A DNA stretch of 64,000 nt, from contig JAVJSN010000015.1 in NCBI GenBank assembly GCA_040219355.1, positions 382,708 to 446,707 of the forward strand, written 5' to 3'. The notes beneath the pieces were generated by a model. It did not search any database and had not been told where the DNA came from. It saw nothing but the letters and a program-made list of their open reading frames with translations. Both the position numbers and the translations under genes were made by a program. This document shows positions 2,445 through 64,000 of the stretch, in pieces (within the stretch, counting starts at the first letter, position 1; every line of letters begins with the position of its first letter). This DNA comes from Hyphomicrobiales bacterium (GTDB lineage: Bacteria > Pseudomonadota > Alphaproteobacteria > Rhizobiales > MH13).

Positions 2445-5400
2445 CTAGCTGGCTGCGGCTAGCAGGCTGGCGTTGCCGCCTGCAGCTGTTGTGTCGATGC
2501 AAATGTGGCGCTCAAGTCGACACCAGCGTCCGAAATCCTGCTCAGCAAGCAGGGAGATGATTGGGCCATCGCGTGATGCAAGTGCTTTGCGAAGTTGCCT
2601 AAGATGAACATCGTCGGCAAAGCAAACGACAGCCTCAAATCCCTTTAACTCACCAAGCGCAGACGATGCCAGCGTCCCTCCGACACCCTCACTGGCGCTC
2701 AGTCCTGGTGCAGTGCAAATCGGAACGCACCCATTTTCGGCGGCTACCGTAGCCTGCCGCAGAGCCTGTTCTCGGGTTGGGCCGAGGCAAAGTACAACGC
2801 CGCGACCATATTCAGAGAAGCGATTGGACTCACCTGTTGGCCCTGCCAGCGTTCTGGTGGAAAGCTGCTTTGCCTCTTTTTTGGATTCGTCGATCAGTCG
2901 TTGGACGGCGCTGACTTCTGCTGGTTTGGTTTCCTCACCTGCGTCAACGATGCGCTCAGGACGCGTGAAACGGGCAACATAATTCGGACCGCCTGCTTTC
3001 GGTCCGGTGCCTGAAAGACCTTCGCCTCCGAAAGGTTGAGAGCCGACGATCGCACCAATCTGATTGCGGTTCACATAAATATTGCCCGCGGCCACCTTGC
3101 TGGAGAGAAGCTGCACGCGGTCATCAATGCGAGAGTGAATGCCGAAGGTCAGGCCGTAGCCGCTCGCGTTAATGTCGTCGATGACGCCGCGTAGTTTTGG
3201 CGCTTTGAAGGTTGCCACGTGCAAAACAGGACCAAAAATTTCCACTTCCAAATCGGCGATACCGCCAACTTTGATCACAGTCGGTGCAACGAACGTACCT
3301 TGGGTTGGTGCTGATACCCGTTTCAACACCTGTCCGGTCGCCTCGGCCTTTTCGATATGAGCCAAGATACCCTCTTGGGCTGTTTCGCTGATGATAGGTC
3401 CAACATCACTGGACATCAGCCAAGGGTCACCGACCACAAGCTCATCCATGGCGCCGAACAGCATCTCCAAGAAGTTTTCAGCGATGTCCTCCTGAAGGTA
3501 CAGCATGCGCAAGGCAGAGCAGCGCTGACCGGCTGATTGGAATGCAGAAGCAACGATGTCTTTGATCGCCTGTTCTGGCAGTGCCGTGCTGTCGACGATC
3601 ATCGCATTCAACCCGCCCGTTTCGGCGATTAGAGGTGCGGTTGGCTCAACGTAGTCGACCATTGTTCGATGGATCGATTTGGCTGTTGCCGTTGAGCCCG
3701 TGAAACAAATGCCATGTATGTCTGGAGATGCTGCTATTTGAGCCCCAACGATTGAACCTGTGCCTGGCAGCAGTTGAAGAGTGGTTTTGGGTACACCGGC
3801 CTGGTGCAGCAGTTTGACGGCAAGGCCCGCGATCAACCCTGTCGGTTCGGCGGGCTTTGCCAGTACACCATTGCCTGCGGCCAGTGCTGCTGCGATTTGG
3901 CCGGTGAAAATTGCCAACGGAAAATTCCAAGGCGAAACGCACGCGAATACGCCACGCGATGGTCTGTCCATCTCAGTCCCTCTGGCCGCGTAGTAGCGCA
4001 GGAAGTCTACGGCTTCACGCAGTTCTGCAATCGCGTCAGCCGGTGTTTTCCCCGCTTCGCGGGCGAGCAACGCAAAAATCTCGCCGGCAGAGGCTTCGTA
4101 AAGATCCGCTGCTTGTCTCAGGACATTTGCACGGTGGGTTGGTGGTGCGGTCCAAGTTTGGGCCAGTTGTAACGCCATTTCGGTATCTTGCTTGGTGCAA
4201 TGCCTTAAGGTGCCAACGATATCCGTGGAGTTGGCTGGGTTGCGCACTGGCTGTGCGCCTTCTCCATCGGCTGGTGCCGCAAGCATCGGGCCGATTTCCC
4301 ACTGTGTGTTTTGAAATGGCGCCCGCAGGCGCTCATAGGTTTCAACATCCACTGGATTGTGGAGGTCAAAGCCTTTTGAGTTGCTGCGTTCTGGCGCGTA
4401 AAGATCTCTTGGTAACGGGACAGGGGATCGTGCGGTTTTCACCGCCTCAAAGGGGTCTTCGGCAATCGCTTCTGCTGGCACATCGGTGTCGACGATCTGA
4501 TTGACGAAGGAGCTGTTTGCACCGTTCTCTAACAGACGGCGAACCAAATAGGCCAGAAGATCGCGGTGTGGACCGACAGGAGCATAAATGCGGCAGCGGG
4601 CGTTTTCGCGTTCCATAACGGTGTCGTAAAGAGCTTCCCCCATGCCATGGAGTCGCTGGAACTCGAAGGCTTTTTGATCGCCTGCCAATTCCAAGATCGT
4701 TGCAACGGTGTGGGCGTTGTGCGTGGCGAATTGCGGATAAAGATGGTCGGTTAGGGTCAGCAAATGGTGCGCGCAACAGATGTAGGAGACGTCTGTAGCG
4801 GGCTTTCGCGTGAATACCGGATAATCCGAAAGCCCCTCAACCTGTGAACGCTTGATCTCGGTGTCCCAATAAGCACCCTTCACAAGCCGAACCATTACTT
4901 TCCGATTATGTTCTTTGGCAAGTGCGCTAATCCAATCGATGACGGGCAAAGCACGCTTGCCATAGGCTTGGACGACAACACCGAAACCATCCCAGTCTGC
5001 CAGTTTGGGGTCTTTGAGAACTGCTTCAATGACATCCAGGCTAAGATCAAGACGATCAGCCTCCTCTGCATCGATGTTCAGCCCCATGCCAGCTTCCTGG
5101 GCCATCCGGGCAAGACGGCTGGCACGTTCTACAAGTTCGCACATCACGCGATTTCGTTGGCCCAGCTCATAGCGAGGATGCAGCGCAGAGAGCTTAATTG
5201 AGATGCCTGGATTTTGCCTGATGTCGCCCGAATGGCATTCCTTTGCCAAGCGCTTGATTGCATCGGCATAGGCATCAAAAAATGCTTGCGCATCGCGCTC
5301 TGTTAAAGCCGCTTCCCCGAGCATGTCATAGGAGAAGGTATAGCCTCCTTCCTGTTGAGTGCGCCCACGCTCCAGCGCTTCTGCGATGGTTCGACCGAGT

Positions 5401-5909
5401 ACGAACGTGCCGCCAAGCTCTTTCATCGCGCTTTTGATAGCTACGCGGATAACCGGTTCACCCAGGCGCTTGATTGCGGAGCGAAGGACCGTCGCTGTGC
5501 CTTTATCATCGGACAGAACTTTGCCAGTCAACATCAAGGCCCAGGTTGACGCATTAACGAGCGATGAGCTGGATTTACCAAGATGCTCGCCCCAGGCTGA
5601 TGGGGCGATCTTGTCTTCGATCAGCGCATCGATGGTGTCCACATCGGGCACGCGCAACAGCGCTTCAGCGAGGCACATCAGCGCCACGCCTTCATCGGTT
5701 GAGAGCCCATACTCGGCAAGAAACACTTCCATCAGACCAGGACTTTTGGCCCTCCGGATCGTTTCAATTAGGCTGATTGCTCGCCGCTTTGCTTTGCTTC
5801 GCGTTTCTTGCGAGATGGCTGATTTCTCGACCAGCTTGGCCAGAACCACATCTTCTGCTGCCAGCGTGAGGCTTCTAATGGTCTTCCGTTGGTCCTCTAA
5901 GCGCGTCAT
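2445..5909 (-). CDS. putA: Bifunctional proline dehydrogenase / L-glutamate gamma-semialdehyde dehydrogenase
   Basis: EYGLSTDEGVALMCLAEALLRVPD, SYDMLGEAA, RLVKGAYWD, FATHNAHT, FQRLHGMGE, RRLLENGANSSF, SPWNFPLAIF, ETGG, GQRCSALR. Confidence 0.97.
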   Translation of the reverse strand: MTRLEDQRKTIRSLTLAAEDVVLAKLVEKSAISQETRSKAKRRAISLIETIRRAKSPGLMEVFLAEYGLSTDEGVALMCLAEALLRVPDVDTIDALIEDKIAPSAWGEHLGKSSSSLVNASTWALMLTGKVLSDDKGTATVLRSAIKRLGEPVIRVAIKSAMKELGGTFVLGRTIAEALERGRTQQEGGYTFSYDMLGEAALTERDAQAFFDAYADAIKRLAKECHSGDIRQNPGISIKLSALHPRYELGQRNRVMCELVERASRLARMAQEAGMGLNIDAEEADRLDLSLDVIEAVLKDPKLADWDGFGVVVQAYGKRALPVIDWISALAKEHNRKVMVRLVKGAYWDTEIKRSQVEGLSDYPVFTRKPATDVSYICCAHHLLTLTDHLYPQFATHNAHTVATILELAGDQKAFEFQRLHGMGEALYDTVMERENARCRIYAPVGPHRDLLAYLVRRLLENGANSSFVNQIVDTDVPAEAIAEDPFEAVKTARSPVPLPRDLYAPERSNSKGFDLHNPVDVETYERLRAPFQNTQWEIGPMLAAPADGEGAQPVRNPANSTDIVGTLRHCTKQDTEMALQLAQTWTAPPTHRANVLRQAADLYEASAGEIFALLAREAGKTPADAIAELREAVDFLRYYAARGTEMDRPSRGVFACVSPWNFPLAIFTGQIAAALAAGNGVLAKPAEPTGLIAGLAVKLLHQAGVPKTTLQLLPGTGSIVGAQIAASPDIHGICFTGSTATAKSIHRTMVDYVEPTAPLIAETGGLNAMIVDSTALPEQAIKDIVASAFQSAGQRCSALRMLYLQEDIAENFLEMLFGAMDELVVGDPWLMSSDVGPIISETAQEGILAHIEKAEATGQVLKRVSAPTQGTFVAPTVIKVGGIADLEVEIFGPVLHVATFKAPKLRGVIDDINASGYGLTFGIHSRIDDRVQLLSSKVAAGNIYVNRNQIGAIVGSQPFGGEGLSGTGPKAGGPNYVARFTRPERIVDAGEETKPAEVSAVQRLIDESKKEAKQLSTRTLAGPTGESNRFSEYGRGVVLCLGPTREQALRQATVAAENGCVPICTAPGLSASEGVGGTLASSALGELKGFEAVVCFADDVHLRQLRKALASRDGPIISLLAEQDFGRWCRLERHICIDTTAAGGNASLLAAAS

Positions 5910-6035
5910 TAAGCTGCCCCTGATCATCAAGATTTGCTTGGCAGCATAGCGTGATCGCGTTAGGCTAAATTCCTGAAAAATTCATATTGTTGGAGATCTT
6001 GACCTAAAGTCGTTTGTTTTTTGGGTGATATGGTG

Positions 6036-51187: not shown

Positions 51188-51293
51188 TCCAAGAGGTGCG
51201 ATACAGCACCGCGTCAATCCGATTTTTCTTCACCAGGTTCGCGCGATATGTAAGGGTTGCCTTAGGTAATCGCGTATCGTCCAGGACCGGTTG

Positions 51294-52052
51294 ATGAACC
51301 ATTCTTTGCCACAGGCGTCGTTTCGTACGCGCTGTGATCAGTGTTCCATTCATAACAGAGCCATATGCAGCCGTGCGTCATCTGCGGCGGCGCAAGAACT
51401 GCAGAATCTTAGCCGTATCCGCCGGTTTTCCGCCGGTCAGGTGATCATCGCGGAGCATACTGAGAGCCTGTTCATGGGCAATGTGGTTACGGGGATGGTC
51501 AAGCTGTGCAAAACGCTTGAAGACGGTCGGCAGCAAGTTGTCGGGCTTCTGTTCCCCTCTGATTTTTTTGGCCGCCCGTTTGAAGAACAGTCACCTTTTT
51601 CTTTTGAGGCGGCGACCGACGTTGAGATTTGCGTTTTCGAGCGCCAAGCCTTTGAGGCTCTGCTCGCACGCTTTCCGGAAGTCGAGCATGAGTTGCTGGT
51701 TCAGGTGTTGACCGAGCTAGACGCGGCGCGTGAGTGGATGGTGCTGCTTGGCTGTCAAACCGCCCGCGAGAAGGTGGCAAGTTTTCTGCTGATGCTGTTG
51801 CGCAGATCTGGTCTTATGGGCTGCGATAAAGCCGATACTCCCGAGGCGCGCATTGTTACAGTTCCTGTGAGCCGGAAGGATGTGGCGCTCTATCTCGGCA
51901 CGACACCAGAGACTGTTTCGCGGCAAATTCAGTGGATGTCGCGCAATGAAATTGTGCGCATTATCGACAGTCAAACCTTCGCGGTTCTTAGTCCACAAAG
52001 GTTGGCGCACGCCGCTTCGCGCGAAGAATGGCTGGATGAGCTTAGCGCTTAG
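51294..52052 (+). CDS. Crp/Fnr family regulator, FnrL/FnrN type with Fe-S cysteines
   Basis: N-terminal C-x2-C-x7-C (CDQCSIHNRAIC) plus the central EICVF Cys; GRQQVVGLLFPSDF; ELDAAREWMVLLG; recognition helix TPETVSR. Confidence 0.88.
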   Translation: MNHSLPQASFRTRCDQCSIHNRAICSRASSAAAQELQNLSRIRRFSAGQVIIAEHTESLFMGNVVTGMVKLCKTLEDGRQQVVGLLFPSDFFGRPFEEQSPFSFEAATDVEICVFERQAFEALLARFPEVEHELLVQVLTELDAAREWMVLLGCQTAREKVASFLLMLLRRSGLMGCDKADTPEARIVTVPVSRKDVALYLGTTPETVSRQIQWMSRNEIVRIIDSQTFAVLSPQRLAHAASREEWLDELSA

Positions 52053-54536: not shown

Positions 54537-54950
54537 TCATCCCCACTGACTGGCAAGTGCGCGCAGGGCGTCTGTGCGGCTGAGCTGCCCGACAAGCTTG
54601 CCGCCATCCATTACGGGAAAGCGGCGAAAGGGTTTTTCAATGAATAGATTTGTCGCGCTGATGACATCCATGCTTGCTTCAATGGTCGCCACCGGATGGC
54701 TCATATAGGCCTCAACGCGCCCGCCCCAGTCGCGGTAATAGCTGGCATCCAGAGCGGCTTTCAGGCAGTCGCGCTTTGTTAAAACGCCAATGAGAAATCC
54801 TTCAGAGTCGAGCACTGGTGCGCCAGATATCCGCCGATCGAGCAGAATGTTCATCGCACGGTTGATTTCCATGTCCGGTGTCAGCGTCACCAGATCTTTG
54901 GACATGAAGTCGGCAACCAAGGGCAGGGAGTCCGTGGTTCTGGCGCTCAT
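54537..54950 (-). CDS. Stand-alone tandem CBS-domain protein
   Basis: VADFMS, ISGAPVLD, GVLTKRD, RRFPVMD.GKLVGQLSRTD. The start overlaps the nqrM stop (ATGA). Confidence 0.9.
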   Translation of the reverse strand: MSARTTDSLPLVADFMSKDLVTLTPDMEINRAMNILLDRRISGAPVLDSEGFLIGVLTKRDCLKAALDASYYRDWGGRVEAYMSHPVATIEASMDVISATNLFIEKPFRRFPVMDGGKLVGQLSRTDALRALASQWG

Positions 54951-55120
54951 GGCTCTCGCTCCAGCATTTTTTTGTTGGGGCAGGTGGCACACTCAATGTT
55001 TTTCAGGCAGGCCACACCGCCACATGATCCTTCAATCGGTTTGCGCCCAGCCATAACGCCGACTGCCAAACCTGCGATTGCTAGGGCAAAAATCGTCAAT
55101 GCGAACAGGAAGATCACCAT
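54947..55120 (-). CDS. nqrM: Na+-NQR maturation factor NqrM (DUF539), 57 aa, absent from the ORF track
   Basis: Hand-translated as MVIFLFALTIFALAIAGLAVGVMAGRKPIEGSCGGVACLKNIECATCPNKKMLEREP: one TM helix, GRKPIxGSCGG and 4 Cys. AGGAGG RBS; directly downstream of apbE. Confidence 0.9.
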   Translation of the reverse strand: MVIFLFALTIFALAIAGLAVGVMAGRKPIEGSCGGVACLKNIECATCPNKKMLEREP

Positions 55121-55126
55121 CGCCTC

Positions 55127-56101
55127 CTAGGCCACGACATGGTCGGAGAAGCTGCCGGTCATGGTTTCGTCCAATCCATTGTCGGTGCGTGTCAGGAAAA
55201 GAGCTGAGACGGCCAGCTCAGATGCACATTGAATGCCGCGTTGCGGTCCAAGGACCATGAGTGCGGTAGCCAGTGCATCGGCGCGTATGGCCGTCGGTGC
55301 GAGAACTGAAACCGCAGCAAGGCTATTGTCTGTTGGGCGTAGATCGCTGGGGTCGATAAGATGACTGAGCGCCACACGGCCGCGATAGCCGTTCGCGCTG
55401 TGACCGGAGCTTGCCAGTGCCAGGTGTCCTGGTGCGATGATGCGGTGAGCGGTTACCTGTGGTGTGCCCGGCTGTTCGATAGCGACCTGCCAAGGACGAC
55501 CCATAGGGTGCTCGCCGATGGCAGAGACTTCTCCGCCAAGCTCAATCAGCGCGCTTGTCACACCTGCGCGGTGTAGCAAGTCTGCAATCTCATCTAAGGC
55601 ATGCCCTTTGGCGATCCCACAGAGGTCAAGCGTTAGGTCATGATGGGCTTTGCGAACCGCTCCATTCTCAACAATGATTGCTTTGTAGGAGCCGGAACCA
55701 CCGTTAATCGGGCCAAACCCAAAGCGAGCAACGGCTGGCCCGACGGTTGGATCAAAGGCGCCGCTGGTGATCTCGGCAACAGCAAGGCTTTCGGCAACAA
55801 CGTGGCAGACATCGCTGGGTAGAGGTTGCCATGCGGTGGTAGCGTTGCGATTGAACCGCGAAATGTCGGAGTCGTTGCGCCAGGGGGACATTTGCTCATC
55901 GACCCGCTGGATGATCGCTTCGACAGGAGGTCGAAGCAGGCGTTCATCCAAGGTGGCCCCGCCTGCTATGCGCCATGTGCTTGCAAAAGCACGACCGCCG
56001 AAGGAGACGGTTGCTGCCTCAGCCTGTGAAGCAAAACCAAGCCCAAAAGCAGCGGTCCATGCCGCGCCGCCTGCCACAAAACTGCGCCGTGTCACGGGCA
56101 T
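55127..56101 (-). CDS. apbE: FAD:protein FMN transferase
   Basis: Twin-Arg signal (TRRSF), SDISRFN, GAFDPTVGP, LDLCGIAKGH, ELGGE, LASSG, HLIDP, ADALATAL. Confidence 0.93.
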   Translation of the reverse strand: MPVTRRSFVAGGAAWTAAFGLGFASQAEAATVSFGGRAFASTWRIAGGATLDERLLRPPVEAIIQRVDEQMSPWRNDSDISRFNRNATTAWQPLPSDVCHVVAESLAVAEITSGAFDPTVGPAVARFGFGPINGGSGSYKAIIVENGAVRKAHHDLTLDLCGIAKGHALDEIADLLHRAGVTSALIELGGEVSAIGEHPMGRPWQVAIEQPGTPQVTAHRIIAPGHLALASSGHSANGYRGRVALSHLIDPSDLRPTDNSLAAVSVLAPTAIRADALATALMVLGPQRGIQCASELAVSALFLTRTDNGLDETMTGSFSDHVVA

Positions 56102-56103
56102 CG

Positions 56104-57324
56104 CTACACTCCGAAATCGTCGTTGAAGATGTGGTCGCGATCGACACCCAGATCGTCCAGCATCTGAAAAACAGCGCGGATCATCAGCGGTGGACCACAG
56201 AGATAGTATTCGCAGTCTTCAGGCGCAGGGTGGTCGCGCAGGTAGGTCTCCAGCGCCACCTGATGAACGAAGCCAACGGCGCCTTGCCAATCATCTTCTG
56301 GCTGCGGATCGGAGAGCGCGACTGTCCAGTCGAAGGTGTCGTGCTCGGCTGCAAGTGCATCCAACTCATCGACGTAAAGCAATTCGGCCTTGCTACGTGC
56401 GCCATACCAGAAAGTCATGCGACGCCCGCTTTTCGTAATGCCCAGCTGCTCATGGATGAGGGCGCGTAGTGGCGCCATGCCGACCCCACCGCCGATGAAC
56501 ACCATTTCCTTGCCGGTCGGTTGCGCACGGAAGCTGCCGAAGGGACCGGATGTTGTGACCTCCTGGCCCGGCTTGAGAGCAAACAACCAAGACGACACGA
56601 TACCGGGTTGTACTTGCGGTTCGGAGGGCGGTGGCAGGGCAAGGCGAATGTTCAACACCACACGGCGGGCTGCTGTGTCTTCGGGTCGGTTGGAGATGGA
56701 GTAAGCGCGGGTAACGTCCTCTTCGCTTTGAACCGATAGGGATCGCAAAGAGCGCCATGCGTCCTTATGGCCGTCGGGCGTGTCAATTGTCGCGTAATCA
56801 AGCGTGTAAGGCGGTGCGGTGACCTGAACATAAGAGCCGGCAACAATGCTAGCATCGACATCATCAGGCAATTGCAGCACGATTTCGCGGATAAGCGGGG
56901 TAAGTGCGGTAACCGAATGTACCGTGCATGTGTAGCTGGTCGCGCCCACCCACTCTTGCGGGGCCTCGACAGCCATATCGTCGCGCAGGGTAACCTGGCA
57001 GGCCAGATGCACACCGTCTCGGCGATCAGCGTTGGAAAGCTGCGCAATTTCAACTGGTAGGTGAGATTGATCCTCGCCGACCACCGTGATCCGGCACAGT
57101 CCGCACGTGCCTGCGCCAGCGCAGGCCGAGGGCACCAGCACATCATGATCATGCAAAGCAGCGAGCAGTTTTTGCCCGGTTTTGACGTGGAACTCGGTTG
57201 AGCCATTGACCGTCAGGACTGCTGGCCCCGAGGGCATCAAAACGCCACGGGCGATCATCACCATGGCGGTCAAAACCAGAACGACGCAGACGATCAGCAC
57301 TGTGCCAAAGAGGATGACGCTCAT
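56104..57324 (-). CDS. nqrF: Na+-NQR subunit F (2Fe-2S, FAD, NADH-binding)
   Basis: N-terminal [14 protein letters not shown]...[32 protein letters not shown]. Confidence 0.93.
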
Positions 57325-57920
57325 AGGCCCACCCCGGCAAATGCAGAAAAGCCGAGCGACATAAGGCCGGTAACAATGAAGGCGATCCCTAGGCCCTGAA
57401 GACCAGCGGGAATGTTGGCGTATTTCAAGCGCTCACGGATTGCAGCAAAGGCGATAATTGCTAGGGCCCAGCCGAAGCCGCTGCCAAACCCGTAGACGAT
57501 GGACTCGCCAAAATCGTACTGACGCTCGACCATAAACAGACTGCCGCCAAGGATCGCGCAGTTGACTGTGATCAGCGGCAGAAACACGCCAAGCGCGTTG
57601 TAAAGAACCGGCACATACCGATCCAGCGTCATCTCCAGCACCTGCACGAAGGCGGCAATAACGCCGATGAATGCGATCAATTTGAGATAGGTGAGGTCCA
57701 TCTCGGGCAGCCCGAGAAAGCCCCAAGCACCTTCGACCAGCAGGCCGTTGAAGATGAGATTGTTGAGAGGAACCGTCAGCGTTTGGACGGCAACGACCGC
57801 AATGCCCAGGCCAACGGCGGTTTCAAAGCGTTCTGAAACGGCCAGGAAGGTACAGACACCCAAAAAGAAGGAGAGCGCCAAGTTCTCTTGGAAGATCGCT
57901 GCGAGAAGAAGGTCGCTCAT
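57321..57920 (-). CDS. nqrE: Na+-NQR subunit E
   Basis: [40 protein letters not shown]. Confidence 0.93.
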
Positions 57921-58582
57921 GAACGTCCCCCGGCAGATTTCAGCGAAGGGTGCAATTTGAACTTCGGCGCTTCGATCTGCGCGGTCCAGCGCGTGCGGAT
58001 GACCCAGATAAGCAGGCCAATGATGAAGAACGCGGCTGGTGCCAGCTGCATCAGGCCAAGCGGTTCAAACCATCCGCCATCGGCAACGGTGACGAAGACG
58101 GTCTGGCCAAATAGTGTGCCCGCTCCAAGAAGTTCACGGATGCCGCCCACAAGCATAAGAATGAGGCTGTAGCCGAGCCCATTGCCGAGCCCATCCAACA
58201 CCGATGGGCCTACTGGATTGCGCATCGCGAAGGCTTCCGCTCGGCCGAGCACGAGGCAATTGGTGACAATGAGGCCGACAAACACCGAGAGCTGTTGGCT
58301 GATCTCAAAGGCAAAGGCTTGCATCAGCTCGTCAATTACGATCACCAGCGATGCGATGATGGTGATCTGAATGATCAGTCTAATGCTGGTGGGAATGTGG
58401 TGACGTATCAGGCTGATGATCGCCGATGACATGCAAAGCACGGCGGTCAGCGCGACCGACATCATGGCGGCTGTTGTCAGCGAGGTTGTAACCGCCAAAG
58501 CCGAGCAGATGCCTAGGATTTGGAGTGTGACAGGGTTTTCCTTCACCAGCGGCGTGGTGAGATGGTGGGCCCAGCGCGCCAT
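57917..58582 (-). CDS. nqrD: Na+-NQR subunit D
   Basis: [53 protein letters not shown]. Confidence 0.93.
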
Positions 58583-59374
58583 CTACAGTCCCTCCTCGGC
58601 AAGGCGATCAAGGAAGGGGCCAAAGCCATTTGGGCCCATCCAAAAGTGCAGGGCAAACGTGACACCATCGCCGGTGCGGGTGGCACCGGAAAGGCCGTCG
58701 ACTTCATGCACGCTCTGCGCCTGGCCACGAACGACCTCGATGACAATGTCGCCCTCCTCATTCAGAAGCTCTTTGCCTGGCCAGAGGCTTTGCCAGTCCG
58801 GTTCTGTGATACGAGCACCAAGCCCAGGCGTTTCTGCCTGTTCGGTGATGGTCAGCGCTGCGACCGTGGAAAGGTCTGGTTCCAGGGCCAACATAGCGCG
58901 GATGGTCGACGCGTAGCCGCTGCCATAAACTGGCAGAACAATGAGCAGCAGATCGCCATCGCGTTCCAGCAGGTGGACGGGTGCATAGAGCGGACGCCGT
59001 CGGATGCTCGCCAGATCATCGTCTGTAGGGATAGCAACCGATAGCTCTGGATCAGTCGCGGCGGCCACAAAATCGTATGTGGCCGGATCAATGTCTGGTG
59101 CGAATTGACCGGTTTGCAGATCAACAATGCGCGTTTCTAACGCTGTCACGCCGGCTTCTTCCATGACCTGACGCATGCCTGGAAGCGTGTCGAGCATGGA
59201 TTCCATGCGGGCGGCTTGCTCAGCGTCAATTTGGGCTTGCTGAATAGGGCCGAGCAAAACCGAGGCGGTGGAGACGAGGATCGCGCAGACAAAGGCCACC
59301 AGTGCCGCGATAGTGACTGTTTTGGTCGTGTCGTCGTTGGGCCGGGCAAACAGAGCGCTGACAGGATTAGGCAT
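58583..59374 (-). CDS. nqrC: Na+-NQR subunit C (covalent FMN)
   Basis: N-terminal TM (ALVAFVCAILVS), PVYGSG, ETPGLG, and the flavinylation motif DGLSGAT. Confidence 0.92.
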   Translation of the reverse strand: MPNPVSALFARPNDDTTKTVTIAALVAFVCAILVSTASVLLGPIQQAQIDAEQAARMESMLDTLPGMRQVMEEAGVTALETRIVDLQTGQFAPDIDPATYDFVAAATDPELSVAIPTDDDLASIRRRPLYAPVHLLERDGDLLLIVLPVYGSGYASTIRAMLALEPDLSTVAALTITEQAETPGLGARITEPDWQSLWPGKELLNEEGDIVIEVVRGQAQSVHEVDGLSGATRTGDGVTFALHFWMGPNGFGPFLDRLAEEGL

Positions 59375-60245
59375 CGTGCTTCTCCGCGTCGCGTTTCTCT
59401 CCAAAGCGTTTTTTCCAGTGTGCCTCTCTGCGGCTTTCCCGGACATAGGCGTTAGTGAGCACGGCAAGATGATCGAGCAGCGGGGCAAAGATGCTTGCCA
59501 AAAGCGCTGCAAAAACAAGGGCTTCAGCCTTTAAATCAGCCGTCGCGAAACCTGAGAAAACAGCGATAAGGAACCCTGCCAACGCGCCATAGGCCCAGCG
59601 ACCGGGATTGGTGCAGGCCGCGCCTAATGGGTCGGCAATGAGGAACACCAAGCCAACGGAAAGAGCGATGGCGAGTGTTTGCATTAATCCAAATTCGCCA
59701 AGTAGTGCCATCGCAGCTGCGGTTATTACCAGGGTTGCGACCAAGACACGCCAGGAGATCAAGCCGGCGAGCAGAAGCAGGATTGCACTAGGAATGGCGG
59801 CCAGCGCGACCGTTACGTCGACGGACTGCAAGGCTAGCTGAGGGAAGGAAAAGACCAAAAGAGCGAGCGTGGCAGCTGCCGGGTTCACAAATCCAAAGCC
59901 GCGTCCACCAAATACCAGTTCGCCCAAAACAACGCCCAGCGAGACCGCGACGGCCAATTGCCAAGTTTCAACGCCCAGTGGCACAAACAGCGTGATAAGC
60001 ATGGCCGTTGTAAGTCCGTGTAAGGACATATCGGCGTGGCGCAAAAAAGCGAAAAGGTTCTCCCAAGCCAGCGCAACCACAAGGCAGGTTAAGAACACCG
60101 GAACAAGCAGTGGCCCTCTGTTGGCAAAATCCATGGCCAGAGGAAATGCCAAAGCTGCGGCCTGTAGCAGGCTCACGCGTCCAGCGCTGAAGAGGAAAGG
60201 CAGCAGTGCCGCCGATTGAACGGTTGGGCGTTGAAAACTGGCCAT
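59367..60245 (-). CDS. nqrB: Short NqrB/RnfD-family subunit (292 aa) lacking the FMN-carrying loop
   Basis: WENLF, GELVFGGRGFGFVNP, SWR, ADP, T..GRWAYG, FAPLLDH, at the nqrB position between nqrA and nqrC. No SGAT motif. Confidence 0.82.
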   Translation of the reverse strand: MASFQRPTVQSAALLPFLFSAGRVSLLQAAALAFPLAMDFANRGPLLVPVFLTCLVVALAWENLFAFLRHADMSLHGLTTAMLITLFVPLGVETWQLAVAVSLGVVLGELVFGGRGFGFVNPAAATLALLVFSFPQLALQSVDVTVALAAIPSAILLLLAGLISWRVLVATLVITAAAMALLGEFGLMQTLAIALSVGLVFLIADPLGAACTNPGRWAYGALAGFLIAVFSGFATADLKAEALVFAALLASIFAPLLDHLAVLTNAYVRESRREAHWKKRFGEKRDAEKHDA

Positions 60246-61570
60246 CAGGCGGCGTCCTCGGCCAACTCATCGAGCACTGAGCGCAGCAAAACACAGTAGT
60301 CGGCACCGCTTGTGCAGATCATGTTCAATGCCGCGACATCTTCTTCGACCAGATCTAATGCACCGAGTTGCTTGGCCGCCTGCGCGTCGCCGACGCTTAG
60401 TGCGCGCATCATCGGCACTGCCAGCACATCGGCGGGGAGGGCGCGATCCATCACGATGTTTGGGATGAGTGACGCGGTGGAGTTGGAACCGAAGAAAGGC
60501 AGGCGCGATGTCCAAGATGGGCGTAGCCCGCGCTTTCGATTTGAAAGGACGCTCACTTGGCTGTGATAGCGGCCAAGATAGCTGAGCTCGCGACCGGTAA
60601 CCGCCGACCCCGACAAGGTGCGGGTGCTGCCATGGTTGGCGGCTTGTGGTTTTAATTCACCTTCGATGAGGCCGCGCAGGCTTGCGCCGAGTTTTGTCGT
60701 CAGAAGACGTGGATTTGTTAGCTGTTCACCGCTTAGCGCAATCACCCTTGTGGCATCGTACCGCCCGGTTAAAAACAAGGTTCCGATGGCTATCACGTCC
60801 TGATACCCGATGCTCCACACGGGCAGATCTGGTGAAGCGGGTGAAAGTCGATGGATGTGCGTCGACGCCAAGCCCGCTTGATAACTACCACCAAAACGGG
60901 CTGTTCTGATTTTCAGGGTGTCAGGCGCTTGGAAGCTGCTCGCCTTATGTTGGCAGACAAAAACCTGCCCATCCGTGAGCTTGGCCAACACTTCAAGGCC
61001 GTGGCGAAAAGCATCCGCATTGTCGGCGATCACAGGGTCGGGATTGGCAGCACCTGGAGATAGATCAATGGCTGACACGAAGATGGCGACTGGGTTCTGG
61101 GCAGATGGCGGTATCAGTCCGAAGGGGCGTGATCGGAAAGATGGCCAAAGCCCGCGCGACAAAAGGACGTTGCGAACGTGCTGACGCGATGGCGCATTGA
61201 TGGCAACCGGTTCAGCGGAGGATTGGCTTTTCTCGTCCTTCCCGTCTTGATGACTGGCTTGGGCGCGGACCACGATTGCCGACAAGGTTCGTCGTGGTCC
61301 GTAGTCGATGGAAAACACACGTCCGCTGATGGGTGAGGCGAAGCAAATCGCGTCATCCTTGCGATCAACAAAAAGAGTTTGCCCTTCGTCCACCTGCTCG
61401 CCGACATCGACCAGAAAGCGTGGGCGCATGCCCGGATAATCCGTCCCAAGTAGAGCAGCCGCAGCGACGGACACGGATTGATCAATCACTTGCGATGGCG
61501 CACCAGGCGCGGAAAACCGAAGACCGTTTCGCAAAGAGACGGGCTTCAACGGTTTGCGTTCAAACGACAT
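60245..61570 (-). CDS. nqrA: Na+-NQR subunit A (divergent)
   Basis: DYPGMRP, GQTLFVDRK, FASPISG, GPRR, GLWPSFRSRPF, YQDVIAIG, YLGRYH.Q, LVEEDVA. Confidence 0.9.
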   Translation of the reverse strand: MSFERKPLKPVSLRNGLRFSAPGAPSQVIDQSVSVAAAALLGTDYPGMRPRFLVDVGEQVDEGQTLFVDRKDDAICFASPISGRVFSIDYGPRRTLSAIVVRAQASHQDGKDEKSQSSAEPVAINAPSRQHVRNVLLSRGLWPSFRSRPFGLIPPSAQNPVAIFVSAIDLSPGAANPDPVIADNADAFRHGLEVLAKLTDGQVFVCQHKASSFQAPDTLKIRTARFGGSYQAGLASTHIHRLSPASPDLPVWSIGYQDVIAIGTLFLTGRYDATRVIALSGEQLTNPRLLTTKLGASLRGLIEGELKPQAANHGSTRTLSGSAVTGRELSYLGRYHSQVSVLSNRKRGLRPSWTSRLPFFGSNSTASLIPNIVMDRALPADVLAVPMMRALSVGDAQAAKQLGALDLVEEDVAALNMICTSGADYCVLLRSVLDELAEDAA

Positions 61571-61650: not shown

Positions 61651-61725
61651 TGCCTTGGTGGAACGACAAGCTATGACCAAGGGAGCCAGATGGCCTTTCG
61701 CTCCAACCGGACAGGATCGACTTCC

Positions 61726-62847
61726 ATGTGCTTGCCAAAGCTGCGTCTGCCCAAAATCTTCGTTGTTTCCGTTTTGACGGCCTTGATCGGGCTGCCGATC
61801 AGCCACGCTGCGGCGCAAGACGATGCGGGAGAGACCGCGATTCTTCAGCTACAAGGTATTGTCGAGGCCTGGCTGTCTTCACCGCATGCTGACATTACCA
61901 GCCAAGCCTTTCATCACTGGGATGAAGATGGCGAAATTCCCGCTACATGCGCGACCTGCCACACGAGTTTCGGTTTCATTGAATATGTGCGTGGCGCCAT
62001 GGACCAGGCAGGCATTGCGCCGCAAGCCATGCCAACAGGTGGCGTCGTTGATTGCGCAGCTTGCCACAGTGAGGCATCCACCGCGCTTGTGAGCGTTCCT
62101 TTTCCATCGGGTGTGAGTGTTGATACGTTCGGCAGCTCTGCCACCTGCGCCGTTTGTCACCAGGGGCGTGCGGCGGGTTCAACCGTCGCTGCTGCAAGTG
62201 AAGGCATGGATGAGGACACCGTGTCGGAAGACCTCGGTTTTATCAATGTGCACTACGCGCCATCGGCTGCAACGCTGATGGGATCGGTCACGTCCGGCGG
62301 ATTTGAGTATGAAGGCCGTGAGTATCGCGGTCAGTTTACGCACGTGCCTGATTTTGCGACCTGCACCAGTTGTCACCAGCCGCATAGCTTGGAACCAGTT
62401 GCAATGGAGACCTGCGCGACTTGTCACCAAGAGGCCGAAACGTTTGAAGACATTCGCACCACCCGTATCGATGTGGATGGCGATGGTGATATGTCTGAAG
62501 GCATTGCCGACCCGATCCACACCCTGCACGAGCGTCTCTATGCGGCCATTCAAGCCTACGGCACGGATGTTGCGGGCACGGCGATCATCTATGCCGATCA
62601 GTTTCCTTATTTCTTCACCGATACCGATGGCGATGGCGCTGTTAGCGAAGGCGAAGCGGCTTTCCCCAACCGGTATGCGTCGTGGACGCCGCGCCTGTTG
62701 AAGGCAGCCTACAATTACCAGTTCATCGCCAAAGATCATGGGGCGTTCGCACACAATCCGCACTATGCACTCCAGCTCCTTTATGACAGCCTGGAGGATC
62801 TTAGCGGACAGGTTGACGTGGACATGGCTGCGATGGCGCGCCCGTAA
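61726..62847 (+). CDS. Periplasmic pentaheme cytochrome c (alternative start at 61690)
   Basis: Sec signal (..HAAA/QD), five CxxCH motifs (CATCH, CAACH, CAVCH, CTSCH, CATCH), two DxDGDG loops, C-terminal GAFAHNPHY. Confidence 0.92.
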   Translation: MCLPKLRLPKIFVVSVLTALIGLPISHAAAQDDAGETAILQLQGIVEAWLSSPHADITSQAFHHWDEDGEIPATCATCHTSFGFIEYVRGAMDQAGIAPQAMPTGGVVDCAACHSEASTALVSVPFPSGVSVDTFGSSATCAVCHQGRAAGSTVAAASEGMDEDTVSEDLGFINVHYAPSAATLMGSVTSGGFEYEGREYRGQFTHVPDFATCTSCHQPHSLEPVAMETCATCHQEAETFEDIRTTRIDVDGDGDMSEGIADPIHTLHERLYAAIQAYGTDVAGTAIIYADQFPYFFTDTDGDGAVSEGEAAFPNRYASWTPRLLKAAYNYQFIAKDHGAFAHNPHYALQLLYDSLEDLSGQVDVDMAAMARP

Positions 62848-62888: not shown

Positions 62889-64000
62889 ATGGAAGACGCC
62901 CACTCTCATGCCCTTGTGCTGGTCGCCATTGGTGTCCTGTTTCTAGGCGGGTTGGCACTTGATGCTTTTGGCCGGATTGTCCATGTTCCGCGTGTAACGC
63001 TGCTCATGCTTCTTGGTGCTTTGCTGGGACCGCCCGTTTTGGACGTGCTTCCAAACGCGATCGCTGGCGGCAATCCGATCTACACTGATCTTGCGCTGAC
63101 AATGGTTGCCTTTCTGCTCGGCAGCTCGCTAAGCCGCCAGACCTTGGCGGCCCACGGTCGCGAAATTCTTGTCGTTTCGATCATCGTCGTGTTGGTTTCC
63201 ATCACGCTGGTGGCAGGTGGGCTCTACCTTCTGGGCGTGCCGCTGCCCATCGCGCTGTTGCTGGGTGGGATATCGGCGGCCACCGCACCTGCTGCGACGC
63301 ACGATGTCATCCGGCAATCTGGCAAGACGGGTAAGTTCGTTACCAACTTGACCGGCATCGTGGCCATTGACGATGCATGGGGGCTGCTTGCTTTTAGCGT
63401 GCTTTTAACACTGGCTGCGCTTCTGGTTGGTAATGGCGCTGATGGTGGCGCCTTGTTCCAGGCTTTTTATGAAGCTTTTGGTGGCATTGCCTTGGGATTG
63501 GCGATTGGTCTGCCCGCCGCTTTCCTCACAGGTCGTTTGAAGCCAGGCGAACCTTCGCTTGTTGAGGCGATTGGCGTGGTGATGCTGTGCACCGGTCTTT
63601 CGCTTTATTTTGAAGTCTCGTTCCTTTTGACGGGCATGGTGTGCGGTGCGGTGATTGTGAACTTTGCCCGCCACCATGAACGGCCGTTTCACGAAATCGA
63701 ACGCATCGAATGGCCTTTTCTTTTGCTGTTTTTTGTCATGGCCGGTGCGTCGCTGCACGTGGAAGCGTTGATGGCGCTTGGCGTTGCTGGTGTGGGCTAT
63801 TGTGTGCTGCGATTTGGTGCGCGCCTTGTCGGTGGATGGCTTGGTGGGCGTGCATCGGGGCTGTCGTCGCAAGAAGGCGTTTTAACAGGTATGGCACTGA
63901 TGCCCCAGGCCGGGGTGGCCATCGGCATGGCGTTGGTTGCCAGCGATCACTTTCCGCAATACCGCGAAACGTTGGTGACGATCACGATTGCCAGCACGAT
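62889..64000 (+). CDS. Cation:proton antiporter (CPA, Na_H_Exchanger family), 3' end outside the window; absent from the ORF track
   Basis: Hand-translated as MEDAHSHALVLVAIGVLFLGGLALD...SAATAPAAT...IVAIDDAWG...PQAGVAIGMAL. The frame is open to the window end. Confidence 0.88.
   Translation, partial: MEDAHSHALVLVAIGVLFLGGLALDAFGRIVHVPRVTLLMLLGALLGPPVLDVLPNAIAGGNPIYTDLALTMVAFLLGSSLSRQTLAAHGREILVVSIIVVLVSITLVAGGLYLLGVPLPIALLLGGISAATAPAATHDVIRQSGKTGKFVTNLTGIVAIDDAWGLLAFSVLLTLAALLVGNGADGGALFQAFYEAFGGIALGLAIGLPAAFLTGRLKPGEPSLVEAIGVVMLCTGLSLYFEVSFLLTGMVCGAVIVNFARHHERPFHEIERIEWPFLLLFFVMAGASLHVEALMALGVAGVGYCVLRFGARLVGGWLGGRASGLSSQEGVLTGMALMPQAGVAIGMALVASDHFPQYRETLVTITIAST

Follow-up and report, generated by a model that had tools for sequence, protein, structure and literature searches.

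Results and discussion

A pentahaem cytochrome gene opposite an nqr operon

We analysed a stretch of 64,000 nucleotides from a Hyphomicrobiales bacterium (GenBank assembly GCA_040219355.1, contig JAVJSN010000015.1, positions 382,708 to 446,707 of the forward strand), referred to below as the window. Near its right end lies a gene for a c-type cytochrome with five haem-binding motifs; the features of the locus are collected in Table 1. An earlier reading of the window, made from the sequence alone (the first-pass annotation), had left the redox partner of this cytochrome unexplained. It is no longer so, because a conserved variant of the NQR sodium pump is encoded directly upstream, on the other strand.

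The open reading frame (ORF) is free of stops over its 373 codons. Its ATG and an AGGA located 10 nucleotides upstream are both kept in an orthologue of 83% identity (locus L001), and on this comparison the start at 61726 is supported. A longer N-terminus beginning at the in-frame ATG at 61690 was rejected: the same orthologue has TCG at that position, together with a frame-breaking indel. A strong ribosome-binding site, AAGGGAG, precedes the rejected ATG, which lies 36 nucleotides 5' of the real start. The ratio of nonsynonymous to synonymous substitution rates (dN/dS) between the gene and this orthologue is 0.067, and the gene is under strong purifying selection.

The product begins with a predicted Sec signal peptide, a feature that the first-pass annotation did not mention. 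Its last residue, A30, and the Q that follows are kept in the family alignment, and its helix (residues 10-22) has a low predicted local distance difference test score (pLDDT) in the AlphaFold2 (AF2) model. An alternative in which the protein carries a lipoprotein anchor was rejected, as there is no lipobox. At its other end the protein closes with a conserved RP. The genome encodes CcmE (System I maturation), and is therefore able to make c-type cytochromes. Judged by these features of its sequence, the cytochrome is a real, conserved and exported product.

Table 1. Features of the cytochrome, of its neighbourhood and of a related gene pair. Positions are those of the window unless a locus is named.
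Feature	Position	Strand	Basis or remark
Pentahaem c-type cytochrome gene (P0001), 373 residues and stop	61726..62847	+	translation, homologues, AF2 model, dN/dS
Sec signal peptide (predicted), residues 1-30	61726..61815	+	K/R-rich n-region, hydrophobic core, AAA/QD cleavage; read from sequence
Haem 1 motif, C75ATCH79	61948..61962	+	aligns to NrfA active-site CxxCK
Haem 2 motif, C110AACH114	62053..62067	+	sequence, family conservation, NrfA alignment
Haem 3 motif, C141AVCH145	62146..62160	+	conserved Q146-G147-R148 directly after
Haem 4 motif, C213TSCH217	62362..62376	+	conserved H220 after it
Haem 5 motif, C230ATCH234	62413..62427	+	sequence, family conservation, NrfA alignment
DxDxDG loop 1, D249-V-D-G-D-G-D-M-S-E258-G259, putative Ca2+ site	62470..62502	+	insertion relative to NrfA
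DxDxDG loop 2, DTDGDGAVSEGE, residues 299-310 (D299-T-D-G-D-G-A-V-S-E-G-E310)	62620..62655	+	EF-hand-type pattern
H343-N344-P345, conserved C-terminal helix His	62752..62760	+	aligns to His of NrfA 'HAP'
Divergent operon nqrABCDEF-apbE-nqrM-CBS	54537..61570	-	Pfam/TIGR models; proposed electron donor
nqrA	60245-61570	-	divergent operon
short nqrB	59367-60245	-	292 residues
nqrC	58583-59518	-	above TIGR equivalog cut-off
nqrD	57917-58582	-	above TIGR equivalog cut-off
nqrE	57321-57920	-	above TIGR equivalog cut-off
nqrF	56104-57324	-	above TIGR equivalog cut-off
apbE	55127-56101	-	divergent operon
nqrM	54947-55120	-	divergent operon
CBS protein gene	54537-54992	-	divergent operon
FNR/FixK-type palindrome TTGACCGGCGTCAA	61637..61650	.	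in the 155-nucleotide divergent intergenic region
Crp/Fnr-family regulator, candidate binder of the palindrome	51291..52052	+	Pfam cNMP_binding and HTH_Crp_2
Na+/H+ exchanger-family gene (runs off the window)	62889..64000	+	41 nucleotides after the cytochrome stop, no terminator between
NOX/FRE-type gene with sister cytochrome	L064 8276-9829; L017 8421-9893; 16 other loci	- (L064, L017)	

Haem motifs, conserved histidines and DxDxDG loops

The five CxxCH motifs stand at residues 75, 110, 141, 213 and 230, in the grouping of three plus two that had been noticed at first reading. We measured conservation over 334 full-length module copies of the family. The pentahaem pattern goes beyond chance, since its motifs are 97-100% conserved, the dN/dS value is low, and this is the only ORF with at least three CxxCH motifs in the 3.73-Mb genome. 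Five additional histidines (H54, H176, H206, H220 and H343) are 91-100% conserved, H54 and H176 being near-invariant and specific to the family, while H64, the counterpart of a distal ligand of NrfA, is conserved at about 74-76%. As five extra near-invariant histidines are available for five haems, it is more likely that all five haems are ligated by two histidines (bis-His) and that the protein is an electron carrier than that it is an enzyme of the NrfA type. Among the residues that are not ligands, Q146, G147, R148, Y177, Y200 and N330 are 86-99% conserved.

The two loops and the C-terminal motif described in the first-pass annotation are all present: DVDGDGDMSE at residues 249-258, DTDGDGAVSEGE at 299-310 and HGAFAHNPHY at 338-347 (with the preceding D, DHGAFAHNPHY, 337-347). 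The protein does not end with the last of these, as had been stated, for 26 more residues follow. The emphasis on histidine in this motif holds for H343, which is 99-100% conserved, and not for its neighbours, the position of H338 being mostly Pro and that of H346 mostly Lys in the family. In loop 1 the conserved residues are D249 (95%), D251 (89%), G252 (93%), D253 (86%), G254 (90%) and E258 (87%). Loop 2, which comes after a beta-hairpin (residues 287-298) in the AF2 model, fits the 12-residue EF-hand-type pattern D-x-[DN]-x-[DN]-G-x-x-[DST]-x-x-E; it retains D299 in 88% of copies, D or N at positions 301 and 303, G304 in 81% and E310 in 72%. Both loops sit in gaps of the alignment to NrfA, and are therefore insertions specific to the family. 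They probably bind Ca2+ and so stiffen the cytochrome; we infer this binding, like the bis-His ligation, from the residue patterns.

Relation to NrfA and to OcwA

The first-pass annotation had seen a likeness to NrfA in the number of haems and in the C-terminal motif, and had proposed profile and structure searches as a check. We compared a profile of 315 module copies of the cytochrome with a profile of 24 NrfA sequences, comprising E. coli nrfA (K-12, b4070) and 23 sequences from genomes of the phylum. Local alignment with HHalign gave a probability of 94.8% and an E-value of 5.4e-8 over 323 columns, with the five haem motifs in register, and an independent comparison with E. coli NrfA alone gave 75.8% in the same register. 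A global HHalign alignment, in which the register of the N-terminal haems was shifted, was set aside; residues were mapped from the local alignment, which agrees with the single-sequence run and is weak, with low confidence, between residues 176 and 200.

On this mapping, the two proteins share five haems in the same order and with similar spacing (35/31/72/17 residues here and 38/49/73/32 in E. coli NrfA), as well as an 'EDG..P..C..C' stretch before haem 1, where 'EDGEIPATC' of the cytochrome aligns to 'EDGPLPMAC' of NrfA. They also share the distal-histidine positions H206, H220 and H343, which align to the histidines of NrfA GIH, TDH and HAP, and a helical C-terminal domain with an 'H-x-P' motif, in which DHGAFAH343NP aligns to SHGIHMHAP. 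By profile comparison, then, the cytochrome is a homologue of the NrfA pentahaem core, and the suspected likeness is borne out.

It is not, however, a canonical NrfA, a possibility that we rejected in agreement with the first reading. The catalytic CxxCK of NrfA is replaced by the CxxCH of haem 1, whose histidine is 97-100% conserved in the family. The catalytic residues Arg106, Tyr216 and His264 correspond to F62 (84% F), R148 (90% R) and S190 (variable), respectively, and the calcium ligands E215, K261 and Q263 to G147, G186 and V188. The cytochrome differs further in its extra invariant H54 and H176, in the two DxDxDG loops inserted in the C-terminal domain, and in being about 100 residues shorter. 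It is also without NrfH or NrfBCD genes: the genome has no other ORF with at least three CxxCH motifs that could be an nrfH or nrfBCD partner, and the neighbours of the gene are nqr genes and an antiporter. No match to PF02335 was found in the genome at E<=1e-30. As the first reading had stated of terminal reductases, no classical gene of this kind was found in the window.

The AF2 model, built from an alignment of 121 sequences, has a pLDDT of 92.4 and a predicted template-modelling score (pTM) of 0.87. A Foldseek search of the PDB returned OcwA (6I5B) as the best match (E-value 0.055, probability 0.95, template-modelling score 0.38, 15% identity), followed by OmhA (6QVM) and then by several NrfA structures with non-significant E-values. 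Going by the model, the nearest solved fold is that of OcwA, and the relationship is only a distant one. The best explanation of these comparisons is that the cytochrome is a diverged, non-catalytic member of the NrfA/OcwA lineage, predicted to be soluble and periplasmic.

The divergent NQR variant

NqrC, NqrD, NqrE and NqrF of the divergent operon all score above their TIGR equivalog cut-offs, whereas NqrB reaches 100 bits against a cut-off of 350. Aligned to the sequence of the V. cholerae structure, this NqrB is missing the first ~80 residues and the periplasmic loop at ~219-270, which carries the threonine (T236) that binds flavin mononucleotide (FMN). NqrC keeps its SGAT flavinylation motif. 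No NqrB/RnfD-like gene other than the short nqrB is present in the genome. The same divergent arrangement of nqr, apbE and nqrM genes with the cytochrome is found in 13 further genomes (14 with this one) from several alphaproteobacterial families; the carriers are Hoeflea, Aestuariibius, Limimaricola, Nioella, Devosia, Bauldia and several metagenome-assembled Alphaproteobacteria.

To measure the association we used 201 evenly drawn genomes of the order to which the window belongs. The cytochrome is present in 9 of them. A short NqrB encoded in a single stretch occurs in 7, and in 7/7 the cytochrome lies within 2.6 kb of it; a canonical NqrB/RnfD (an ORF of ~400 residues) occurs in 13, and in 0/13 is the cytochrome found. 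Fisher's test of short NqrB against cytochrome gives P = 1.5e-11 when genomes are counted and 4.5e-5 when genera are counted, a result that rests on only three independent genera in this sample and to which the wider set of loci adds lineages. Within the bacterium's own genus, three of six species have both genes (G000, G479 and G521) and three have neither (G425, G560 and G595); one of the non-carriers, G595, has an NqrB/RnfD of canonical length instead. The cassette is therefore accessory.

The cytochrome and nqrA are separated by 155 nucleotides. This interval contains the palindrome TTGACCGGCGTCAA; TTGA-N6-TCAA occurs nowhere else in the 64-kb window. FNR-type boxes occur 5' of the cytochrome in 10 of the 13 orthologous NQR-paired loci, against a chance expectation of ~0.009 per locus, and in 7 of the 18 loci described below in which a sister cytochrome is paired with a NOX/FRE-type gene. 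A Crp/Fnr gene like that in the window also flanks the Hoeflea operon. On its downstream side the cytochrome is probably co-transcribed with the Na+/H+ exchanger gene, to judge from their spacing. Such a gene follows the cytochrome in seven other loci (8 with this one), one of which, an Ahrensia contig, ends just upstream of the cytochrome. Its recurrence suggests that a sodium cycle is tied to the module.

Extent of the family and its other partners

A word-indexed search found 2,772 homologues of the cytochrome. When searched for exhaustively, the family came to 1,458 clusters (50% identity), of which 296 have E<1e-30. Members with a single module, of ~365 residues, occur in Alphaproteobacteria, and some carry the NCBI name 'polyheme membrane-associated cytochrome C'. 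Tandem members with 2-4 copies of the module, and hence 10 to 20 haems, occur in Chloroflexi, Myxococcota, Planctomycetota and other groups.

Existing family models say little about these proteins. The Pfam models PF14522 (c7; 39.8 bits, cut-off 24.8), PF14537 (c3_2; 32.7, cut-off 25) and PF02085 (class III; 31.8, cut-off 22.9) match, recognising the clusters of haem motifs only, and are silent on function. PF02335 (Cytochrom_C552) stays below its cut-off (10.5 bits against 24.1, over residues 326-358 only), and a search of NCBIfam gave no match near a cut-off and none to the NrfA model (TIGR03152). A decahaem cytochrome of the MtrC/OmcA type was considered and rejected (PF22113, 28.7 bits against a cut-off of 30; TIGR03507, 22 against 209). 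A DmsE/MtrA-type porin-cytochrome conduit was likewise rejected, since the scores fell short of the cut-offs and no second multihaem protein (at least three CxxCH) is encoded in the genome. Searches of the PDB sequences with phmmer and hmmsearch gave only matches to CxxCH motifs. Neither Pfam nor NCBIfam holds a curated model for the family, and literature searches, within the library covered, returned nothing specific on the family, on a cytochrome-linked NQR or on pairs of a ferric-reductase-domain (FRD) protein and a multihaem cytochrome.

The NQR variant is one of several partners. In 18/18 loci a sister clade of the cytochrome is divergently paired with a transmembrane NAD(P)H reductase of the NOX/FRE type, a protein of ~500 residues that has Ferric_reduct, FAD_binding_8 and NAD_binding_1 domains, and no third conserved gene was found at these loci. 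The genomes belong to Paracoccaceae, Phyllobacteriaceae, Rhizobiaceae and Rhodomicrobiaceae and, outside the Alphaproteobacteria, to the gammaproteobacterium Billgrantia (Halomonadaceae). In a maximum-likelihood tree, the FRE-paired cytochromes form one clade (support 100/99) that cuts across taxonomy, which indicates that the two genes are transferred together as a cassette, and the NQR-paired cytochromes form the surrounding grade. Within the bacterium's own order, the search for FRE orthologues found only distant paralogues, in genomes without the cytochrome, which indicates that the pairing is specific to one FRE subfamily. Five copies from Chloroflexi also stand beside distant FRE homologues (26-30% identity).

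In a metagenome-assembled genome of Phaeovulum (L012 11046-14690, reverse strand), the cytochrome is convergent with genes for ApbE, a 734-residue PepSY_TM-flavodoxin-NAD_binding fusion and a DUF2271 protein; the fusion is, from its domains, a putative NAD(P)H-driven electron exporter. In at least 26 loci of the Chloroflexi type there are genes for a cytochrome b (Ni_hydr_CYTB), for a protein of the NapC/NirT type and for additional multihaem cytochromes. What these partners have in common, as read from their domains, is that each is a membrane device for bringing electrons to the outer side of the cytoplasmic membrane.

A separate clade of family members, the orphan clade considered further below, differs in its surroundings. 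In one of its loci the cytochrome follows a same-strand gene for a DAO-family FAD (flavin adenine dinucleotide) oxidoreductase, and in another it is divergent from a cytochrome P450 gene (L091 7426-8583 and L090 9595-10803, both forward). A PutA gene lies near the orphan-clade cytochrome in L090. The present window also has one, encoding a bifunctional proline dehydrogenase/pyrroline-5-carboxylate dehydrogenase of 1,161 residues (2445-5930, reverse strand); this is probably coincidence.

Proposed route of electrons and alternative explanations

We consider it rather probable, from sequence and gene context, that the cytochrome is the periplasmic electron acceptor of the adjacent NQR variant in an electron export driven by NAD(P)H. 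NADH would be oxidised by NqrF, passing electrons to its FAD and then to its 2Fe-2S cluster. By way of the iron centre of NqrD/E the electrons would cross the membrane and, on its periplasmic side, reach the FMN bound covalently to NqrC. The route up to NqrC is established NQR biochemistry (PMC12174285). From the FMN of NqrC, the electrons would go to the pentahaem cytochrome instead of to FMN(NqrB), riboflavin and quinone. We infer this exit from the loss of the NqrB flavin loop together with the genetic linkage and co-occurrence of the two genes. We also count the unrelated electron-delivering partners of other family members as independent support for an acceptor role. The complex would pump Na+, which would be cycled through the co-transcribed Na+/H+ exchanger, and the shared FNR-type box would induce the module at low oxygen.

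Metal chelates and shuttles are common electron acceptors of multihaem cytochromes with bis-His ligation. By outer-sphere transfer, the cytochrome would pass its electrons to a final acceptor, for which our candidates, offered as a guess, are soluble Fe(III) or Mn chelates, quinone-like shuttles, an FNR-co-regulated cbb3 oxidase and cytochrome c peroxidase; the genome encodes CcoP and a cytochrome c peroxidase-like dihaem protein.

Descriptions of NQR have the electrons run in a closed loop that leads from NADH to quinone. A bolder form of the proposal, to which we give slightly less than an even chance, is that the NQR variant and the cytochrome together make up a new sodium-pumping NADH:cytochrome c oxidoreductase and that the five-haem module is a common adaptor for at least four unrelated exporters. 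The FMN(NqrB)/riboflavin/quinone half of the loop would then have been given up and the electrons released in the periplasm, and the exporters served by the adaptor would be the NQR variant, NOX/FRE-type proteins, PepSY-flavodoxin-FNR fusions and cytochrome b/NapC modules.

Several points weigh against an acceptor role beside NQR. Bis-His haems typically have low potentials, with which a hand-over to the cbb3 oxidase is no more than possible. About eight proteobacterial members, a clade of their own beside the Chloroflexi modules, lack a membrane partner of this kind in their neighbourhood, so the family can work with other donors. Divergent genes under a common regulator need not encode proteins that interact. 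The count of histidines would also fit four bis-His haems and one open haem with a distal histidine, and the conserved Q146-G147-R148, Y177, Y200 and N330 could form a novel pocket.

The last point leads to the main rival account, in which the cytochrome is a terminal reductase. One of its haems would be five-coordinate and open, in the manner of OcwA or of a CxxCH-type NrfA, and the protein would reduce nitrite, hydroxylamine, sulfite, an N-oxide or peroxide in a new distal pocket with electrons supplied by the NQR variant or the FRE protein. Haem 1 does align to the catalytic haem of NrfA, and OcwA, the closest fold, contains five-coordinate haems and can reduce both nitrite and hydroxylamine in vitro (PMC6703420); the conserved non-ligand residues could serve such a pocket, and the FRE-cytochrome pair, lacking a third conserved gene, has the cytochrome as its final component. 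We nevertheless think this account unlikely. In place of all the catalytic and calcium residues of NrfA stand others (F62, R148, a variable residue, G147, G186 and V188). H54 and H176, invariant and specific to the family, could occupy the sixth coordination position, the module is strung together in 2-4 tandem copies in the manner of a wire, and no substrate-specific accessory genes are conserved. Somewhat less probable again is a linkage that is regulatory only, where the cytochrome would be a general low-oxygen carrier of the periplasm (from bc1 to the cbb3 oxidase or to cytochrome c peroxidase, for example) that shares an FNR-controlled promoter region with an NQR still reducing quinone by some route. 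The presence of CcoP and of the peroxidase-like dihaem protein, the orphan clade and the retention of NqrA and the other NQR subunits all fit such a carrier. Its difficulty is the co-occurrence with the FMN-less NqrB, which is perfect and adjacent, while the cytochrome is absent where NqrB/RnfD is canonical. In addition, three or four unrelated exporters driven by NAD(P)H or quinol recur beside the family, the cassette moves between families as a unit, and within the genus the two genes, though patchy (3/6 species), are always together.

The direction of flow could also be reversed, with the cytochrome drawing on a donor in the periplasm or outside the cell (Fe(II), reduced shuttles or sulfur compounds) for electrons that it would feed to the NQR variant, where a sodium gradient kept by the adjacent Na+/H+ exchanger would drive the uphill reduction of NAD+. 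Machines of the RNF/NQR type are reversible in principle (PMC12174285), and the exchanger gene that follows the cytochrome in 8 loci could supply the gradient. Against this, the NOX/FRE-type and PepSY-flavodoxin-NAD partners have a design that sends electrons outward from NAD(P)H (PMC8238504). The bacteria that carry the cassette are Alphaproteobacteria with a heterotrophic way of life, no enzyme that would oxidise a donor is linked to it, and control by FNR suggests the need for an electron sink at low oxygen; we judge reverse flow to be very improbable.

Comparison with known systems and implications

The best structural matches of the AF2 model, OcwA of Thermincola potens and OmhA of Carboxydothermus ferrireducens, resemble the cytochrome in being related to NrfA, in having CxxCH throughout and, on the role proposed here, in exporting electrons instead of taking part in nitrogen metabolism (PMC6703420). 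Their haems number nine and eleven, respectively; they belong to Gram-positive cell walls or S-layers and have no described DxDxDG loops, whereas the cytochrome is a predicted periplasmic protein of a Gram-negative with five haems.

By analogy of function, the closest precedent is Rnf with MmcA, a multihaem cytochrome c that is encoded with the Rnf of Methanosarcina acetivorans and is thought to be the exit of electrons to membrane or extracellular acceptors (PMC12174285; 10.1101/2023.04.20.537704; PMC6703419). The likeness is a functional one, with no sequence relationship claimed, and lies in the genetic linkage of a cytochrome to a sodium pump of the RNF/NQR type. The archaeal Rnf is driven by ferredoxin and co-transcribed with its cytochrome, while here the NQR is driven by NADH, its NqrB is FMN-less and the cytochrome gene is divergent. 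In a 2025 review of RNF/NQR pumps, a cytochrome is mentioned only for the archaeal Rnf. Meheust et al. (2021) described ApbE-linked systems of the NQR/RNF-like, MsrQ-like/FRD and PepSY-like kinds that send cytosolic electrons to extracytosolic acceptors, with flavinylated and cytochrome components used interchangeably (PMC8238504). The same classes of membrane module (NQR-type, ferric-reductase-domain and PepSY_TM) stand beside our family, but the acceptor in those systems is a flavinylated FMN-binding protein, and neither this cytochrome family nor an NQR with an FMN-less NqrB is described there.

The pairing of the cytochrome with NQR implies an undescribed respiratory arrangement. If true, such an exit of electrons from NQR into a multihaem cytochrome of the periplasm would mean that sodium-coupled respiration has a further, new mode and that the archaeal Rnf-MmcA has its counterpart in bacteria. 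It would give ordinary marine and saline aerobes a way of extracytoplasmic electron disposal induced by oxygen limitation. The family shows an enzyme, NrfA, turned into a wire module. A role for it would annotate thousands of 'hypothetical' cytochromes, and would point to an unsuspected capacity for electron export in aerobic marine heterotrophs.

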